NCBI GenBank assembly: GCA_023379075.1
Contig: JAMCSO010000041.1
Location: forward strand, 1-33,911
DNA from: Candidatus Marsarchaeota archaeon
GTDB lineage: Archaea; Micrarchaeota; Micrarchaeia; Micrarchaeales; CABMGC01
DNA: 33,911 nt
Reading direction: 5' to 3'
Program-made: the position numbers and the translations under genes
In this document: one piece after another, positions 12,855 to 32,085 of the stretch
Numbering within the stretch: the first letter of the stretch is position 1
How the letters are laid out: every line of letters starts with the position of its first letter
The notes under the pieces: model-generated
Database searches by the model: none
The model's input: only the letters and a program-made list of their open reading frames with translations
Told to the model about the DNA's origin: nothing

Positions 12855-14128
12855 AGCGATCCCGTTATACATATAACATCGTCAGTTGATGACTCACTGA
12901 GGGCTTTCTTCCACGCCTGCCCAAAATTATCGAATGACTCGGAGCCGGCAGAGAGGGAAGAGAGATATGCGGGATTATAAGACATTCTTCTCCCAAAGTC
13001 TGTGTTTGACTCGAATGCGGTGAAGTAAAACTTTGAGGAGAGAGGGGCAAGCGCCTTAATCATCTCGTTTACATTCTTGTCCTTCTTTGCAGCAAATATT
13101 ACCTTGAGGCTGCGACCCCTAAGACGAGCCTTCAGGGTCTTTACAAGAGCTTCAATCTTCATTGGATTGTGCGCCCCGTCGAGTATCACTTCTGGATTTT
13201 TCATGATGATCTCGAACCTTCCAGGAATATTAAGATGAAGAAGACCTTCGCGAACAGACCTTTCAGAGGCCTTGAAACCGTGAGATTTTAACGCAAGAAC
13301 CGCGCTTATTGCAAGTGCAGCATTGGCCACCTGATGCTCACCGAGAATGCTCATTGTCAAGCCAGTATATCGCTTATTCTCGGTTATGAGATCAAATCTG
13401 GTTCCTTCATCGATTGTTTTGATATTGTATATTATATCCTTTCCTAACAGCTTCAGATCTGCTCTTTCTTCTTTTGACTTCTTTTCCAGTATCTTCACCA
13501 CTGAAGGCTGCAAAGCCCCAGAGATTACAGATATTCCAGGTTTTATTATGCCGGATTTATCGGTTGCGATCTCGTCTACAGTATCGCCAAGAATCTCTGT
13601 GTGATCAAGGCCTACGTTTGTTATTATTGCAACTTTAGGAAGGATTACGTTTGTACCATCATATCTGCCCCCAAGGCCTACTTCTATTACACCTATTTCA
13701 ACCCCGGCCTCCTTGAAGTGTTGGAAAGATAGGGCTAGGAGGGCTTCAAAGTAGGTAGGCAGCCCCCACCCGCTTCTCCTGGAAAGGCATTCAGAGTATA
13801 CTGAAAGATTATTTACTAGGCGTACAAAGGCAGGCTTAGACATGATGCGCATGTTGACCTGCGCCCGTTCGCGCATATCTTCTAGATGCGGAGAGATGTG
13901 CAAGCCGACCTTGTATCCGGATCGCATAAGCATGCTTGCAATCATTGTAGAAGTTGAACCCTTTCCTGCGGTACCACCAATGTGGACAGCGGGGTATGCG
14001 TTCTGTGGATTTCCCATCAGCTGAAGGAGTGCACTCATTCTTCCAAGTCCCTCGCCTTCATTACTCTTTTTATTGAATGGAAGAGATTCCAGATACGCTT
14101 TTGCCTCTGAAAATGTTTTGATCTCCAT
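12818..14128 (-). CDS. folC: Folylpolyglutamate synthase / dihydrofolate synthase (Mur ligase family)
   Basis: HIGGTAGKGSTSTMIASML P-loop and GLDHTEILG. ATG 14128 is preceded by GTGAG; the ORF track start is GTG 14137. The 3' end overlaps lipA convergently by 37 nt. Confidence 0.85.
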   Translation of the reverse strand: MEIKTFSEAKAYLESLPFNKKSNEGEGLGRMSALLQLMGNPQNAYPAVHIGGTAGKGSTSTMIASMLMRSGYKVGLHISPHLEDMRERAQVNMRIMSKPAFVRLVNNLSVYSECLSRRSGWGLPTYFEALLALSFQHFKEAGVEIGVIEVGLGGRYDGTNVILPKVAIITNVGLDHTEILGDTVDEIATDKSGIIKPGISVISGALQPSVVKILEKKSKEERADLKLLGKDIIYNIKTIDEGTRFDLITENKRYTGLTMSILGEHQVANAALAISAVLALKSHGFKASERSVREGLLHLNIPGRFEIIMKNPEVILDGAHNPMKIEALVKTLKARLRGRSLKVIFAAKKDKNVNEMIKALAPLSSKFYFTAFESNTDFGRRMSYNPAYLSSLSAGSESFDNFGQAWKKALSESSTDDVICITGSLYLVGEARSKLL

Positions 14129-18747: not shown

Positions 18748-19788
18748 TTATTTATTTTTCTTTACCTTTGAAGTATCCCCACTCTTCATTGCGAGTTTCA
18801 CTGACCCTGTTCCAAGGGGAATGAGTTTCCCGACAAGAATGTTCTCAGTAACCCCGCTCATCGGATCTATCTCGCCGAAGGCAGCAGCGTTTATCAGGTG
18901 CTTGACGGTCTCTTCATAAGCAGCTCGTGCCAGTACCGAATTCTTCTGTCCTGAGAGGCCATGCCTGCCTATACCTTTTATCGTGCCGCTTGACGTCATC
19001 GCATCGGCTATGAGCAGAAGATGCCTATGGTCTACTGTTATAGACTGCTCAGATAGAGTATGCATCAATTCCTTTGCAAGAGTATATCTTGCGGATTCTA
19101 TTCCAAATTGCTTGTGCATGGCAAATACGTCGTTAGTGTATAGCCTGTATTTGTCAACTCCTGGCACATCCATTATTGCGCTAAGATTATTCCCTGTAGC
19201 TATTATGAAGTATTCTCCAGTCTTTTTATCCTGCTGTATTATTGCTTTCCCAACCCCTTCTATTCCGCTTATCACTGACCTCATTATCCTTACTCCAGTG
19301 TTCCTTATTATTTTCATGTTTGTTGTCTGAAGTCTGACTGTGACTGCGTCTTCCTCGGCTTCGGCCTCGACTTCGAAGAGTTTCTCGATCTTTGAGGCGA
19401 TCTGCTTTGAGGTTAGACCAGCGGCTTCGAGTTCCTGGCTGTTCAGGAAAAATTTGATGCGCTTCTTAGGAAAGTTCTCGACGAACCTCCTCACTATGTT
19501 CTGCATCTTTACCTCGTTTATCTTCTTGGCTATAGCTTCCACTTTCTCGAAATCTTTTTTAGCCCCGTCTTCGATGTAAACATAAGTTATTGGAGTTGTA
19601 GGCCTTTTTTTGGCATCGACAAGCTCCGCAAGCCTTGGAAGCCCAGAGGTAGTGACTGTTGCCTCTATTCCTGCAAAGTGGAAGAGCCTCAGAATCATCT
19701 GCGTTCCCGGTTCACCCACAGATTGGGCCGCGATCATTCCAACAGGTTCTCCATATTGGACATTATAATTATTTGATTTTTTTGCCAT
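18748..19788 (-). CDS. rpoA2: DNA-directed RNA polymerase subunit A''
   Basis: MAKKSNNYNVQYGEPVGMIAAQSVGEPGTQM... Starts at ATG 19788, 4 nt after the rpoA' stop. The ORF track extends to 19824. Confidence 0.9.
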   Translation of the reverse strand: MAKKSNNYNVQYGEPVGMIAAQSVGEPGTQMILRLFHFAGIEATVTTSGLPRLAELVDAKKRPTTPITYVYIEDGAKKDFEKVEAIAKKINEVKMQNIVRRFVENFPKKRIKFFLNSQELEAAGLTSKQIASKIEKLFEVEAEAEEDAVTVRLQTTNMKIIRNTGVRIMRSVISGIEGVGKAIIQQDKKTGEYFIIATGNNLSAIMDVPGVDKYRLYTNDVFAMHKQFGIESARYTLAKELMHTLSEQSITVDHRHLLLIADAMTSSGTIKGIGRHGLSGQKNSVLARAAYEETVKHLINAAAFGEIDPMSGVTENILVGKLIPLGTGSVKLAMKSGDTSKVKKNK

Positions 19789-19792
19789 TTTA

Positions 19793-22216
19793 TCACTCGC
19801 TCTCTTTCTCTTCCAACTCAGCAAACTGGGAGCTTACAGGATTTATAAGGTCTCCGCCATAAACAGTCTGGATCAGGTTGTTGTTCGCATCCCTTACGCT
19901 CTCGTCAGATGTTACATAAAAGTCCTGAAGTGCATTTGATAGTCTTCTGTAAAGATAACCGCTTCTTGTAATCAGGAGATATTTGTACACCTCAGAGACC
20001 CTCGAACCGACGCCGTGCATGAATAGATCTATTGGAGATAACCCCATGTAAAAGTTCGTTGTTACGAATCCATGTGCTGTAGGCCCTATATCATTTGGAG
20101 CTATGTGCGGGAGCACTCTTCCAGTATAGTATCCTCTCTTTATCCTGCCTCCGCTTAGCGTTGCCTGCTGTCCGAGGAACATAGTCATCTGCTCAAGGTT
20201 TAGCATGTTTCCTCTTGATCCTGCGAATGTCATCTGCATGGCACTGTTTGTAGGATCCTCGTTCTTTGAAAGAGAGACTTCTGCCTTGCTTCTTGCAACA
20301 TTGAGCTCTGCGATGATCATCCTCTCCAATGAGTCACGCATCGTATATCCAAGAAGGGGTTCAAGCTTCTTGTTCTTGTACTGGTCCACCATTGATGAAG
20401 CATTATTGAGTGTCTCCTGTATTATCCTTTCCCTGTCTTCCTGCAGCTTTGAATTTGGCGCATATTCCTTGACTCCCACTGTGACTCCTGCAAGAGTGAC
20501 ATATGCATCGGCAACCTTTGATGAGACGAATATGAAGGTCTTCAAGACATCTTCACCGTAATCCATGGCTATCTTGACAAAGAGCCTGTTTCCGCCGCCA
20601 TATGTGGCTTTGGTAACAACCCCTTTCTGAAGGATTCCGTTCTTTATAACAAAGTCGCCTCTCTTTGTCTTCTCCTCGAAGTTCAGCCCTTTTGGAAGAA
20701 GCAGTGAGAAGACATCTTTTCCCTTGTATTTTCCATTCTTATCTGGCTTTGGTAATTCGTATATGCCAGCTATGCCAAGCAGATATGCTGCCTCGTCTTT
20801 TGTAAGGTATGTGTCGTCTTTTGTAAGGAAGTACATCCCAGTGATTCCGTCCTCAGAATTCGTTATTATCGCGTCACCGTCTCTTGGCGAGAATATATGA
20901 TGCTTTACTTCCATCAGGTAGAAAGCCTCTGCCTGGGCTTCGAGGCTTTGGGGAACGTGTAGGTTCATCTCGTCTCCGTCGAAGTCTGCGTTGTAAGGCT
21001 TTGTAACACAGAAATTAATCCTGAAGGTTTTATCTGGAAGAACCTTAACCCTGTGAGCTAGTATTGATAGCCTGTGAAGTGATGGCTGTCTGTTGAATAG
21101 CACTATGTCTCCGTCCATCAGTTGCCTCTCCAATATGTGACCAGGCTGGACCTCTTTGAGAAGGTCTTCCCTGTTGATATCGAGAACCCTCTTCCTCTTT
21201 CCATCTTTTGATACTATATTAAGTATTGTAGGGTACTCTGTCCTTGAAAGGAGCTCCTTTGCCTTCTCTATATTCCAATTCGTAACATAGAACGGAACTG
21301 TGAGCTTTGATGCAATCTCCAAAGGCACTCCAACTTCATCTACATTTATGTAAGGGTCTACACTTATAACCGTTCTTGCAGAATAATTGACCCTCTTTCC
21401 GCTCAGGTTGTATCTGAATCTTCCTTCCTTGCCCTTTAGCCTTTGGGCCAGTGTCTTAAGTGATCGGCCGCTCCTGTGCCTTGCCGGAGGAATTCCTGAT
21501 GTCTCGTTGTTGAAATAGGAAGTTACGTGATACTGCAGAAGTTCCCAGAGATCATCTATTATTATCTGGGGAGCTCCAGCATTTATGTTCTGATCAAGCC
21601 TCTGGTTTATTCGTATTATGTCTACAAGCTTGTGCGTTAGATCATCTTCGCTCCTCTCTCCAGATTCAAGAGTTATCGATGGCCTGACGTTGACTGGAGG
21701 CACGAGCAGAAGGCTTAGCACCAGCCATGAGGGCTTGCTTGCTTCGGGATCTATCCCCAGAATTCTCAGATCGCTATCGTCTATCTTCTCAAGCATGTCC
21801 CGGATCTCGTCCGGCCTTAGCCTTCTCTCGTCTATATAGAAATATGTGGGAGATGAGAATCTGAGCTTTCCTTGGGCCTCGCCGCAATGCGGACATTTCT
21901 TCAGGTTCTTGAGCTTCTTTATTGATGATGTTTGCTCCTCTGACTGCTCATCATGGATATGCCCTGAATCAAATCCTTCCTCCAAGATCTCCCTGTTCTT
22001 TGCTTTGAATATCTCAATCTGTTCGTCATTGAGAAGTATCCTTCCGCAGCGCTTGCATGTTGTCTGGAGAAGCATGTATATTATCTTTGAGAATTCGGAG
22101 TGTATTACTGGCCTGACAAGCTCGATGTGCCCGAAGTGTCCAGGGCAGGTCTTTGCCCTAGCCCCGCAGGTCTTACATATCAATCCTGGATCTATAACTC
22201 CAAGGCGCTGGTCCAA
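19793..22216 (-). CDS. rpoA1: DNA-directed RNA polymerase subunit A' (main part, downstream of an in-frame TAG)
   Basis: RLGVIDPGLICKTCG...CPGHFGHIEL zinc motif, RLKGKEGRFRYNLSGKRVNYSARTVI, and the NADFDGDEMN catalytic motif. The first codon is TTG 22216, two codons after TAG 22220-22222. Confidence 0.9.
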   Translation of the reverse strand: MDQRLGVIDPGLICKTCGARAKTCPGHFGHIELVRPVIHSEFSKIIYMLLQTTCKRCGRILLNDEQIEIFKAKNREILEEGFDSGHIHDEQSEEQTSSIKKLKNLKKCPHCGEAQGKLRFSSPTYFYIDERRLRPDEIRDMLEKIDDSDLRILGIDPEASKPSWLVLSLLLVPPVNVRPSITLESGERSEDDLTHKLVDIIRINQRLDQNINAGAPQIIIDDLWELLQYHVTSYFNNETSGIPPARHRSGRSLKTLAQRLKGKEGRFRYNLSGKRVNYSARTVISVDPYINVDEVGVPLEIASKLTVPFYVTNWNIEKAKELLSRTEYPTILNIVSKDGKRKRVLDINREDLLKEVQPGHILERQLMDGDIVLFNRQPSLHRLSILAHRVKVLPDKTFRINFCVTKPYNADFDGDEMNLHVPQSLEAQAEAFYLMEVKHHIFSPRDGDAIITNSEDGITGMYFLTKDDTYLTKDEAAYLLGIAGIYELPKPDKNGKYKGKDVFSLLLPKGLNFEEKTKRGDFVIKNGILQKGVVTKATYGGGNRLFVKIAMDYGEDVLKTFIFVSSKVADAYVTLAGVTVGVKEYAPNSKLQEDRERIIQETLNNASSMVDQYKNKKLEPLLGYTMRDSLERMIIAELNVARSKAEVSLSKNEDPTNSAMQMTFAGSRGNMLNLEQMTMFLGQQATLSGGRIKRGYYTGRVLPHIAPNDIGPTAHGFVTTNFYMGLSPIDLFMHGVGSRVSEVYKYLLITRSGYLYRRLSNALQDFYVTSDESVRDANNNLIQTVYGGDLINPVSSQFAELEEKESE
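21416..21451. repeat. Arm B of an intragenic inverted repeat (native rpoA' codons LAQRLKGKEGRF)
   Basis: Forward strand GAATCTTCCTTCCTTGCCCTTTAGCCTTTGGGCCAG. Its reverse complement matches 22208..22243 at 34/36 positions, with a perfect 28-nt core at 21419..21446. Confidence 0.9.
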
Positions 22217-22243
22217 AGGCTAAAGGGCAAGGAAGGAAGAATC
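22208..22243. repeat. Arm A of the intragenic inverted repeat (antisense copy placed in the rpoA' N-terminal coding region)
   Basis: Forward strand CTGGTCCAAAGGCTAAAGGGCAAGGAAGGAAGAATC. The perfect core 22213..22240 equals the reverse complement of 21419..21446. The forward-strand translation reads LVQRLKGKEGRI. Confidence 0.9.
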
Positions 22244-22348
22244 CTCATTGTAGGTGTCAGGTATGTTGAGCTTCACAACGCTTAGCTTCTTTATTTGCTC
22301 TGGGGCAATTGTTCCAAATTTTATATCATTTATTATTTCAGCTTGCAT
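22220..22348 (-). CDS. rpoA1: N-terminal 42-codon fragment of RNA polymerase subunit A', ending at an in-frame TAG
   Basis: ATG 22348: MQAEIINDIKFGTIAPEQIKKLSVVKLNIPDTYNEDSSFLAL then TAG. The first ~35 residues match the conserved RpoA' N-terminus. It is in the same frame as 19793..22216. Confidence 0.7.
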   Translation of the reverse strand: MQAEIINDIKFGTIAPEQIKKLSVVKLNIPDTYNEDSSFLAL

Positions 22349-22357
22349 AAATACCAC

Positions 22358-24196
22358 CTACTCTTTCAACCTTACCCTTGGAAGTATGTGCAGGGACTTG
22401 ATCTCGTCAAGCAGAACCTTGAATGCGTAGCTTAGCTCGACTCCGACAAGATCGCCATTCGTGCATATAGGACAGACTGGCATCCTCTTTATGTAGTCGT
22501 AGTAGCCCATGCTTCCGCAGGACTTGCATATTAGCACCTCGGTCTTATCGCTCTGATCCAGGAGACGCTCCTTAAGGAGAAGCGTTGCTCCATGGCCTAT
22601 GAGCGCATCCCTTTCCATTTCTCCGAATCTGAGGGCACCCTGCCTGGCCTTGCCTTCAGTAGGCTGGTGTGTTAATATCTGAACCTTTCCTCTCCCTCTA
22701 ACCTGCATCTTATTGCTTACCATGTGATATAATCTATTGTAATAAACAACGCCAGTGAATATCTTTGCCTTGAACTCCCTGCCAGTTATTCCGTCGTATA
22801 ATGTCTCGTCTCCGAACTCATCAAATCCATATCCCTTAAGCACATCTCCATACTCTTTCATTCTTGCCTTGCCTTCCATTATGAAGCCTGTGCCGTCGAT
22901 CTTCTTACCGTTAAGTGATCCTGCTTTGCCTGCAAGCATCTCCAGCAGATGTCCGAATGTAAGTCTTGTAGGTATGCTATGTGGATTTAGAAGAAGGTCT
23001 GGAACTATTCCACTCTCTGTGAAAGGCATATCTGCCTGATTTGCTATAAGCGCAACTACTCCTTTCTGCCCGTGCCTGCTGGCAAACTTGTCCCCTTTCT
23101 CAGGAACCCTTAAACTCCTTACACGGATCTTTACAATCCTTGTCGCTCCTGTGGACTCGGTTACTATTACGCTATCAACTACCCCTTCCTCTCCTGTCTT
23201 AAGCATTGTGGAATCTTCCCTTGTCTTCTCTTCAAGGCCTCCTGCGCCTATATTCTCTTCCAGGAATCTTGGAGGAGCGACCTTTCCTATCAGCACATCG
23301 CCTTCCTTTACTTCCATCTCTGGCTCTATGATCCCATCCTCGCTGAGTTTTGAATAGACATGCTCACCCATATATCCTTCGGCTGTTGGTGGAGGTATCC
23401 TGAATTTGTCCTTTTGCCCCCCAGGATATCTTCTCTCCTCATCGGAATAGGATTTGTAGAACATGCTTCTTCCCATGCCCCTGTCGACTGATGCCTTGTT
23501 TATGACAACCGCATCTGACATGTTATATCCATAATACGTTGACAATGCGACTACTAAATTCTGGCCGCTTGGGTGGGATTTGATCTCTGCTGCCCTGTAC
23601 GCAGAGGTTGAGACTATTGGAACCTGCGGATAGTAAAGTATGTAAGATCTTGAATCGAATCTAATGTTAAAGTTGGATGAATATAGCCCCTCAGATTGCT
23701 TTATGAAGTTTGCAAGCATTGTGTGCCTTGCAAGGCTGTTGTGCTCTGGGAAAGGAGACGTACTTACAGTAAAACCGAAGACAGAAACAAGATCCATCTC
23801 TAGATGGGTAACATCCTTTGTTATGTCTTTCTCGCTGAGAGCTATAAGCGCATTCTCTTCCTCTTCTGCATCAAGATATTCTATTATGCCATTCCTTATT
23901 AGATAGGTAAAATTGATTTCCTTGCTCTTTATTCTTGCAAGCATATCCTCTGTTAGTTTTGAGCTTCCGTTCTCAACTATTATGTAAGGCTTCCTTATCC
24001 TTCCACGGTCTGTGTTTATATTGATGGTGTTTAGCTTTTCCATGAAGGCGACATTGACCTCTCCTGAGATCAGACCCTTTCGTCTTGTCTTTCTTACTTC
24101 GTTAACAAACGAGATAGGATCCTCAACGAAGCCGATAACTTTTCCGTTGAGATACACATATGATTTTTCTTGTGCTTTCAAACAATCACCAATCAC
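22358..24196 (-). CDS. rpoB1: DNA-directed RNA polymerase subunit B' (C-terminal half of B)
   Basis: GDKFASRHGQKGV, NPHSIPTRLTFGHLLE, GEMERDALIGHGA and the C-terminal CKSCG...CPIC zinc motif. The GTG start overlaps the rpoB'' TGA (GTGA). TAG stop. Confidence 0.92.
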   Translation of the reverse strand: MIGDCLKAQEKSYVYLNGKVIGFVEDPISFVNEVRKTRRKGLISGEVNVAFMEKLNTININTDRGRIRKPYIIVENGSSKLTEDMLARIKSKEINFTYLIRNGIIEYLDAEEEENALIALSEKDITKDVTHLEMDLVSVFGFTVSTSPFPEHNSLARHTMLANFIKQSEGLYSSNFNIRFDSRSYILYYPQVPIVSTSAYRAAEIKSHPSGQNLVVALSTYYGYNMSDAVVINKASVDRGMGRSMFYKSYSDEERRYPGGQKDKFRIPPPTAEGYMGEHVYSKLSEDGIIEPEMEVKEGDVLIGKVAPPRFLEENIGAGGLEEKTREDSTMLKTGEEGVVDSVIVTESTGATRIVKIRVRSLRVPEKGDKFASRHGQKGVVALIANQADMPFTESGIVPDLLLNPHSIPTRLTFGHLLEMLAGKAGSLNGKKIDGTGFIMEGKARMKEYGDVLKGYGFDEFGDETLYDGITGREFKAKIFTGVVYYNRLYHMVSNKMQVRGRGKVQILTHQPTEGKARQGALRFGEMERDALIGHGATLLLKERLLDQSDKTEVLICKSCGSMGYYDYIKRMPVCPICTNGDLVGVELSYAFKVLLDEIKSLHILPRVRLKE

Positions 24197-25662
24197 GCTT
24201 CTTTTATGCTGTATATTTTTTTGAGCTCGTCAGCAGTGAGCTTCTCGTCAGCTCCTACGCTGACCTTTGCCATTACCGCAAGATACTTTGTGAGTCCGAC
24301 CTCCTGTCCTTCAGGAGTCTCTGATGGACAGATCTTACCCCACTGAGTCCCATGAACGTCTCTGGCCTTGAAGTGAGGATGCTTCTTTGCCAATGGAGAT
24401 TTTACCCTCCTGAGATGAGTATAAGTACTTATCAAGTTTGTTCTCTCGAGAACCTGCGAGACGCCAGTCTGCCCTGCGACCCATGTTCCAGTCCCCATTG
24501 CATAGGCCATCTTCTCTGTGAGCGTGTCTGGGCTTATTATTGACTGTATGCTGAGCCTTCTGCCCCTGGCGCTTGACCTTTCTACCTGGTATTTGACTTC
24601 CTTGACGAAGAATCTGAACGCATATGCAAATAAGTCTTCCATCAGCTCTCCGGCAAACTTTACCCTCTTATTTGCGAAATGGTCCTTGTCGTCTTGTTTT
24701 GCCAGCCTGTTAGCTATTATTGTGGATTTCCTTGCCATCTGCATAAGATACTTTGCCTTGGCCAGCCTATCTTCTGGACCATTGCCCATATGTGGCAGTA
24801 GATAGGTATCGAGCTGCATCTCTGCTCTCTTCTGCTGATATTCCTTTGCCTGGGCAGGAGCTGCAAGCTTGCCGACCTCTATGAGCGCCTCGCTCGGAGG
24901 AAGTTCCTTGGCTTCGCTTAGCTCCAGATTTAGAAGTATATCGTTCTTGAAAGCATTGAACTCGCTTGCATATTCTATTATATCTTTTGCCTGGAGACCG
25001 AGAGACCTAAGCATCAGTATCATGTTTATGGGTTTTGAAGTTGTTGGAAAATCAACTTCAAACAATCCATTCTGGTTTCTTGAGACAGCACATTTTGCCC
25101 TGAATCCGGGAGTTGTTGAGAAGACCTGACTCCTAACCTTTGTGCCTTTCTTCTCCCTGGTTGTTATTATCCTATTTGACGCAACATCTTCGAGACCTAT
25201 GAGAACTCTCTCGACTCCTTTTATTATGAAGTATCCTCCGGGATCTTCCGGGTCCTCGCCGTTTTCTACTACCTGACTCTTCGCCATGGTTTTGAGGTGG
25301 CAGAGTGAGCTTCTCACCATTATTGGAAGCTCCCCGACAAAGACCTCTCCGTAAGAGGCTGCTTTCTCAATGCCTCTTATCACAGGCACTACTTCTATGA
25401 ATATCGGTGCAGAATAAGATAAATTTCTCAGGCGCGCCTCATTTGGAGTTATGCTTCGCCTTGAGCTGTCCGCTTCTATTACAGAGGGTTTATCCAGCCT
25501 TACGCTTCCTAGCTTCAGGGCAAAACCCTCGACACCAGGCTCGATTATGTTCTGCGTGCTTACTACTTTCTGCAATCCACCGTCGATAAACCTGTTAAAA
25601 CTCTCAACCTGGTGCTGTACCAAGGAAGCAGGGTTAAGATAAGATTCTAGCAAACCATCCAT
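24193..25662 (-). CDS. rpoB2: DNA-directed RNA polymerase subunit B'' (N-terminal half of B)
   Basis: LVQHQVESFNRFI, RLRNLSYSAPIF, RVKSPLAKKHPHFKARDVHGTQWGKICPSETPEGQEVGL. 489 aa. Confidence 0.92.
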   Translation of the reverse strand: MDGLLESYLNPASLVQHQVESFNRFIDGGLQKVVSTQNIIEPGVEGFALKLGSVRLDKPSVIEADSSRRSITPNEARLRNLSYSAPIFIEVVPVIRGIEKAASYGEVFVGELPIMVRSSLCHLKTMAKSQVVENGEDPEDPGGYFIIKGVERVLIGLEDVASNRIITTREKKGTKVRSQVFSTTPGFRAKCAVSRNQNGLFEVDFPTTSKPINMILMLRSLGLQAKDIIEYASEFNAFKNDILLNLELSEAKELPPSEALIEVGKLAAPAQAKEYQQKRAEMQLDTYLLPHMGNGPEDRLAKAKYLMQMARKSTIIANRLAKQDDKDHFANKRVKFAGELMEDLFAYAFRFFVKEVKYQVERSSARGRRLSIQSIISPDTLTEKMAYAMGTGTWVAGQTGVSQVLERTNLISTYTHLRRVKSPLAKKHPHFKARDVHGTQWGKICPSETPEGQEVGLTKYLAVMAKVSVGADEKLTADELKKIYSIKEA

Positions 25663-32026: not shown

Positions 32027-32085
32027 TCATTCACATTATTTGCATTTTTTGCATTTATATAAAATAAAAAAGAAGAAAGAGCAAA

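Follow-up and report, generated by a model that had tools for sequence, protein, structure and literature searches.

A 23-nt inverted patch in rpoA' of a Micrarchaeota contig, read as a private template-switch error

A short segment near the start of the gene for RNA polymerase subunit A' (rpoA', Rpo1N) recurs within the same gene in inverted orientation, and the upstream copy carries a stop codon in the reading frame. This raises the question of whether the inverted copy is a genuine feature of the organism, possibly with a role in expression of the gene, or an error, and, if an error, whether it arose in the cell or in the course of sequencing. The gene lies in a window (the whole stretch of DNA that was analysed) of 33,911 bp, the closest named relatives of which are MAGs of Candidatus Micrarchaeota (DPANN). 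The genes of the operon are arranged in the order rpoH, rpoB'', rpoB', rpoA', rpoA'', and the rpoA' product shares 97% identity with intact 851-aa proteins that carry the Pfam domains RNA_pol_Rpb1_1 to Rpb1_5. The rpoB gene is split (window 22358-25662) into B'' of 489 aa and B' of 612 aa, which overlap by 4 nt at 24193-24196, and the end of rpoB' is 10 nt from the start of rpoA'. The start of rpoB' is called differently between records, giving lengths of 607, 612 or 618 aa. With regard to the inverted copy, the comparisons described below lead to the conclusion that it is no real biological feature but an error, or a dead-end mutation, of a general kind already known.

The inverted repeat and the replaced tract

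The sequence at 22208-22243 reads CTGGTCCAAAGGCTAAAGGGCAAGGAAGGAAGAATC and matches the reverse complement of 21416-21451 at 34 of 36 positions, with a perfect core of 28 nt (22213-22240 versus 21419-21446). Both the window letters and a repeat scan agree here with the initial annotation, from which this description is taken. The self-comparison for inverted repeats that had been proposed singles out the same pair, extended to 42 nt at 21416-21457 and 22202-22243, with 38 of the 42 positions (90%) complementary and 744 nt between the arms (Table 1). Beyond one 16-mer, no other exact repeat of at least 16 nt, direct or inverted, was found in the 33,911-bp window. This 16-mer is an inverted pair (13460-13475 and 32068-32083) with arms 18.6 kb apart, and is probably a coincidence, since chance alone would give approximately 0.1 pairs of this kind. 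For an exact inverted match of 28 nt in 33.9 kb, approximately 5.7e8 position pairs multiplied by 4^-28 give an expectation of approximately 1e-8, and the longest exact inverted repeat among 90 related rpo loci does not exceed 15 nt. The repeat can therefore be taken as real; chance does not explain it, as had been argued from its length.

Table 1. Coordinates of the features of rpoA' and of the inverted repeat in the window
Feature	Position	Strand	Description
rpoA' (RNA polymerase subunit A'/Rpo1N)	19793..22348	-	From translation; 851 codons including the in-frame TAG at codon 43
Truncated ORF, 796 aa	19793..22183	-	TTG start at 22183; exact-sequence match in NCBI / NCBI nr, one 33,911-bp contig
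Arm A of the inverted repeat	22202..22243	.	42 nt; complementary to arm B at 38 positions; perfect core 22213-22240
Arm B, donor	21416..21457	.	Encodes KTLAQRLKGKEGRF (codons 298-311) as native sequence; the same in intact L003 and L004
Replaced tract (acceptor)	22218..22240	.	23 nt, reverse complement of 21419-21441; 19 positions differ from native
In-frame TAG stop made by the patch	22220..22222	-	Codon 43, read 22222-22220
Pre-existing priming homology	22202..22217	.	Native AAGGCGCTGGTCCAAA, 13/16 complementary to 21442-21457; TTTGG/CCAAA exact at the junction

The two arms differ in their standing. Arm B, which had been described as encoding a conserved motif of RNA polymerase, is indeed native coding sequence and is identical in near-identical relatives. 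Arm A, placed initially at codons 33-44, lies slightly off that range, at codons 36-49, where it reads DSSFLAL-stop-PLDQRL and relatives read DGYPIDGGLLDQRL. The altered tract was delimited by ungapped comparison with a native reference, the intact allele of a Logan contig (L004), and all 19 base differences are confined to 22218-22240, a strict exchange of 23 nt for 23 nt. The left junction reads GAGGAT/TCTTCC and the right junction TAGCC/TTTGGACC (native counterpart GAGGATGGATATCC; the slash marks the junction), and the sequence is native everywhere outside the patch, so that a paste preserving both length and frame, as first described, is borne out. The same is true of the two mismatches of the repeat, at 22241 and 22212, which were thought to preserve native Asp codons and which sit in the native GAT and GAC codons, identical to those of the intact allele.

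At the protein level, the patch changes the conserved GYPIDGGL to SSFLAL-TAG-P, and the replacement of the conserved segment by DSSFLAL-stop-PLDQ, with an in-frame TAG at codon 43, is confirmed. Six of the 34 long reading frames in the window are terminated by TAG, which is therefore an ordinary stop in this window, and the code is standard. Recoding of TAG, for example as pyrrolysine, was considered and ruled out by the same count and by the nonsense residues at a near-invariant motif. The patch should inactivate rpoA', an essential gene.

The native state and the privacy of the allele

Contigs of a near-identical strain were located in Logan assemblies of two sequencing runs, by exact-protein look-up with the neighbouring rpoB''. 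In run SRR10273178, one contig of 10,652 bp (L004) agrees with the window base for base outside 22217-22240, and a further 13,892 bp (L009) shows one difference from the window, at 13676. Over 24.5 kb, only the patch and this synonymous SNP (at which the window has G and both Logan assemblies have A) distinguish the contigs of this run from the window, suggesting that the window comes from the same population as SRR10273178, perhaps from another read set. Contigs L003 and L008 of the second run, SRR28285716, are approximately 99.9% identical to the window outside the patch. An intact 851-aa RpoA' is encoded in the Logan assemblies of both runs. A normal GYPI..GGL-type sequence in independent data had been named beforehand as the outcome that would indicate an artefact, and this is the sequence that the contigs of both SRR10273178 and SRR28285716 carry. 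Comparison of the window with L003, L008 and L009 revealed no further templated patches or clustered differences, and isolated SNPs only. Within rpoA'', L004 ends at 19076 and L009 starts at 19078, which suggests a drop in coverage or a polymorphic site at 19077 in the SRR10273178 data. No mention of SRR10273178 or SRR28285716 was found in the literature.

NCBI and NCBI nr both list the truncated product of 796 aa, on exactly one contig (33,911 bp), so the patch was already in the sequence at deposition. Planting or scrambling of the sequence in silico was ruled out by this entry, together with the 13/16 complementarity that pre-existed at the site. At the site of the patch, NEDGYPIDGGLLDQRLG is the reading in the nearest members of a collection of 5.8 billion proteins, which have 851 aa and are 97% and 95% identical. 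The 90%-identity cluster that contains the truncated product has nine other members, which come from more than 20 contigs of NCBI, JGI, ENA and Logan; eight are complete proteins of 851 aa and the ninth is an N-terminal fragment of 60 aa, and all nine read GYPIDGGLLDQ. A search for the junction pattern in the GTDB species-representative genomes gave no matches, the protein scan there having returned relatives of at most 73% identity and not the species' own representative. The same pattern gave no matches in JGI metagenome contigs, which is uninformative, as the native allele of the strain is also absent there. The comparison with sister genomes that the initial annotation had called for thus returns an intact sequence in every other member of the cluster, and no copy of the junction in the GTDB species representatives.

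In a wider comparison of 79 archaeal rpoA' loci, the residues G37, P39, I40, G43 and L44 are conserved in 74-79 loci each, and no locus has a stop codon in the N-terminal region, which counts against a natural split gene. The patch and the inverted repeat are absent from the near-identical strain, from the nine other members of the cluster and from the 90 related loci, and the patch allele is private to one deposited contig. This absence speaks against both a functional long-range RNA structure and a regulatory inverted repeat.

Junction asymmetry, proposed mechanism and comparison with known systems

The two ends of the patch are unlike each other. On the 22217 side, the native flank was already complementary to the donor at 13 of 16 positions, a degree reached by 29 of the 6.46 million position pairs in the gene (4.5e-6). 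At the second junction (22240/22241) no base is shared, and no similarity was found beyond it, on the 22241 side. The initial annotation proposed either a template-switch (quasi-palindrome) event or a chimeric artefact, pasted between short microhomologies. The first part of this proposal is supported; the second holds for one junction only, where 5 nt are exact within the 13/16, the other junction being blunt. The one-sided homology points to an event of annealing and polymerase extension, as opposed to random scrambling or a de Bruijn error, and its position on the 22217 side would set the polarity, with a nascent + strand having its 3' end near 22217. The patch does not represent a genetic element; under the favoured explanation, it is a template-switch error that occurred once and is private.

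In the proposed sequence of events, a growing + strand with its 3' end at approximately 22217 would leave its template, and the freed 3' end would anneal to a strand of the same polarity 0.75 kb away, at 21442-21457, where it is 13/16 complementary. The annealing partner could be its own upstream part, the displaced strand or a sister template. Extension by 23 nt would copy 21441 down to 21419, after which synthesis or joining would pick up the original template again at 22241. The outcome is an overwrite of 23 nt by the reverse complement, producing an inverted repeat of 28 nt (perfect) or 42 nt (imperfect), with loss of GYPIDGGL and gain of TAG at codon 43. The part of this scheme that is least well explained is the blunt return in exact register (23 nt out, 23 nt in), which models of simple mispriming do not predict; it could reflect the filling of a gap of fixed length, or the two lengths may be equal by chance.

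In several respects the patch is like the short-range template switches described by Ripley and, as a four-point model, by Löytynoja and Goldman (PMC5453318). With its two switches, its geometry as a whole fits the four-point model of mutation clusters formed in vivo. One event explains a cluster of substitutions, the altered tract is the reverse complement of sequence nearby on the same molecule, the ancestral state is known, and a perfect inverted repeat is formed in one step where an imperfect repeat was already present at the switch point. Nevertheless, classical switches act over tens of bp, whereas the donor here is 756 bp away, with 744 nt between the arms, and the four-point model is explicitly short-range and does not cover long-range switches (PMC5453318). 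The patch also differs from the classical Ripley model in that its complementarity is one-sided (13/16 on 22202-22217) and its return junction is blunt.

Multiple displacement amplification (MDA) yields approximately one chimera per 22 kb of reads, of which 85% are inverted, and most of these chimeras join segments less than 10 kb apart (Lasken and Stockwell 2007, PMC1855051). The inverted forms arise when the 3' end of a displaced strand finds a priming site on single-stranded DNA of the same polarity close by, and complementarity of 2-21 nt is used for priming (PMC1855051). The patch is similar in being inverted, in the distance of 0.75 kb between its segments and in the 5 nt exact within a 13/16 priming site, but MDA chimeras have a single junction with an intervening deletion (the A'C form), whereas the patch has two junctions 23 nt apart, no deletion and an in-register return. 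Chimeric reads at natural inverted repeats are produced by sonication and enzymatic libraries too, as explained by the PDSM model (PMC10908179). As in those reads, the patch is an inverted copy of nearby sequence nucleated at a natural imperfect inverted repeat; unlike them, since they are low-frequency, read-level artefacts reported in human capture data, it reached the consensus of an assembly. The patch therefore acts like a template-switch event, with a first junction like that of an MDA or library inverted chimera, and, given its long range and its two junctions, it is typical of neither family.

Origin and significance of the patch

Two facts, the loss of an essential gene and the absence of the patch from independent assemblies of the strain, make an in vitro origin the most likely, with a fair degree of probability. 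The error would have been made during amplification, whether by strand displacement or by PCR, or through mispriming at the end-repair step of library preparation, and would then have entered a consensus of low redundancy, in which case the deposited contig is wrong at the patch. Per molecule, complex mutations of this kind are rarer in vivo, by orders of magnitude, than chimeras are in vitro. Against this origin, simple mispriming predicts a single junction and a deletion, as opposed to the two junctions found here. An in vitro artefact is normally confined to a minority of reads, and can enter a consensus only where coverage is very low or the error occurs early in amplification. A genuine template switch in vivo (quasi-palindrome or four-point), or a templated repair of a break or gap, is a less probable source that nonetheless deserves weight; it would represent a dead-end loss of function in a rare, dying or polyploid-heterozygous lineage, caught by chance. 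The near-complementary flank already at the switch point is consistent with such an event, as is the rest of the contig, which is free of errors relative to the independent assemblies, so that the assembly was not generally sloppy. Moreover, the filling of a gap of fixed size, of the excision-repair or Okazaki type, might be expected to give a length-preserving return. On the other hand, the event would kill rpoA', which is essential and presumably single-copy, at codon 43, with loss of near-invariant archaeal residues, and the result could not be the majority allele of the population. The patch was not seen in other assemblies of the species (protein-collection look-up, 90% cluster), and the distance of 756 bp is far above the short range of classical quasi-palindrome events. 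The patch may be a real strain-level allele if the MAG and SRR10273178 represent different samples. It is very improbable, though, that living Micrarchaeota cells carry it as the result of a fresh 0.75-kb template switch, tolerated through polyploid heterozygosity or through termination at the TAG and reinitiation at TTG 22216 to give a two-piece RpoA'.

A purely computational artefact, in which graph mis-traversal, bubble resolution, polishing or scaffold repair produced a sequence for which no DNA molecule ever existed, is improbable. The exact retention of length and the blunt, homology-free second junction do resemble an in-place substitution between anchors, and a different assembler (Logan), working on closely matching data, arrived at the native sequence. 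However, the native arms share five exact bases at the junction and no de Bruijn k-mer (>=21) connects them, while both junction k-mers would be needed in the reads. In addition, the 13/16 flank (4.5e-6 by chance) indicates annealing of nucleic acids, which software does not reproduce, and no second anomaly was found in the 24.5 kb compared. A mis-join by a de Bruijn assembler was judged unlikely, there being no k-mer common to the native arms. The assembly artefact allowed for by the initial annotation is accordingly unlikely as a k-mer error, for want of a shared k-mer of usable length. A selected, functional feature is the hardest reading to credit, whether as a long-range mRNA duplex regulating rpoA', an RpoA' split by reinitiation at TTG 22216 or 22183, read-through of the TAG, or a DNA inversion switch. 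The duplex predicted between the arms has an energy of -64.7 kcal/mol, compared with -24 for the native sequence, the TTG at 22216 is situated 3 nt past the TAG, and archaeal RNA polymerase subunits are split naturally elsewhere, as in A'/A'' and B'/B'' of the window. Yet the patch is absent from the nearest strain, which is identical over 24.5 kb bar one synonymous SNP, and from all relatives; near-invariant residues are removed, TAG is a normal stop, and the absence of any other divergence from the intact allele leaves no time for selection. The long-range mRNA duplex put forward initially is thus physically possible, but it is conserved nowhere and belongs to an allele that gives no full-length protein; a regulatory role is therefore unsupported, and the duplex is an accidental by-product of the paste in a dead allele.

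The biological weight of the patch is small, because it is a private, gene-killing error without sign of selection. At 22218-22240 the GenBank record, both the contig and the 796-aa RpoA' entry, is erroneous or at best not representative. rpoA' is a standard phylogenetic marker, and a truncated entry can therefore distort marker-gene sets and estimates of completeness of a DPANN MAG. The locus, whose ancestral state is known, also offers a clear case study of a templated inverted patch, which could serve in screens of MAGs for template-switch artefacts. Should the event have taken place in vivo, its range would be unusually long for a template switch in an archaeon.

Two minor observations concern the contig and the remainder of rpoA'. 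Other assemblies of the species yield contigs of 33,994 and 34,244 bp, near the 33,911 bp of the window, suggesting that identical repeats bound the region in every assembly of the species. Further along rpoA', on the minus strand at 20793-20828, an exact direct repeat of 15 nt, TCGTCTTTTGTAAGG, is present in two copies 21 nt apart and encodes the tandem peptide LTKDDTY / LTKDEAA. Relatives read LTKDDTYLTNDEA at this position, and the repeat is therefore best read as an old duplication of seven codons, the DNA copies of which appear nearly identical in the strain of the window.
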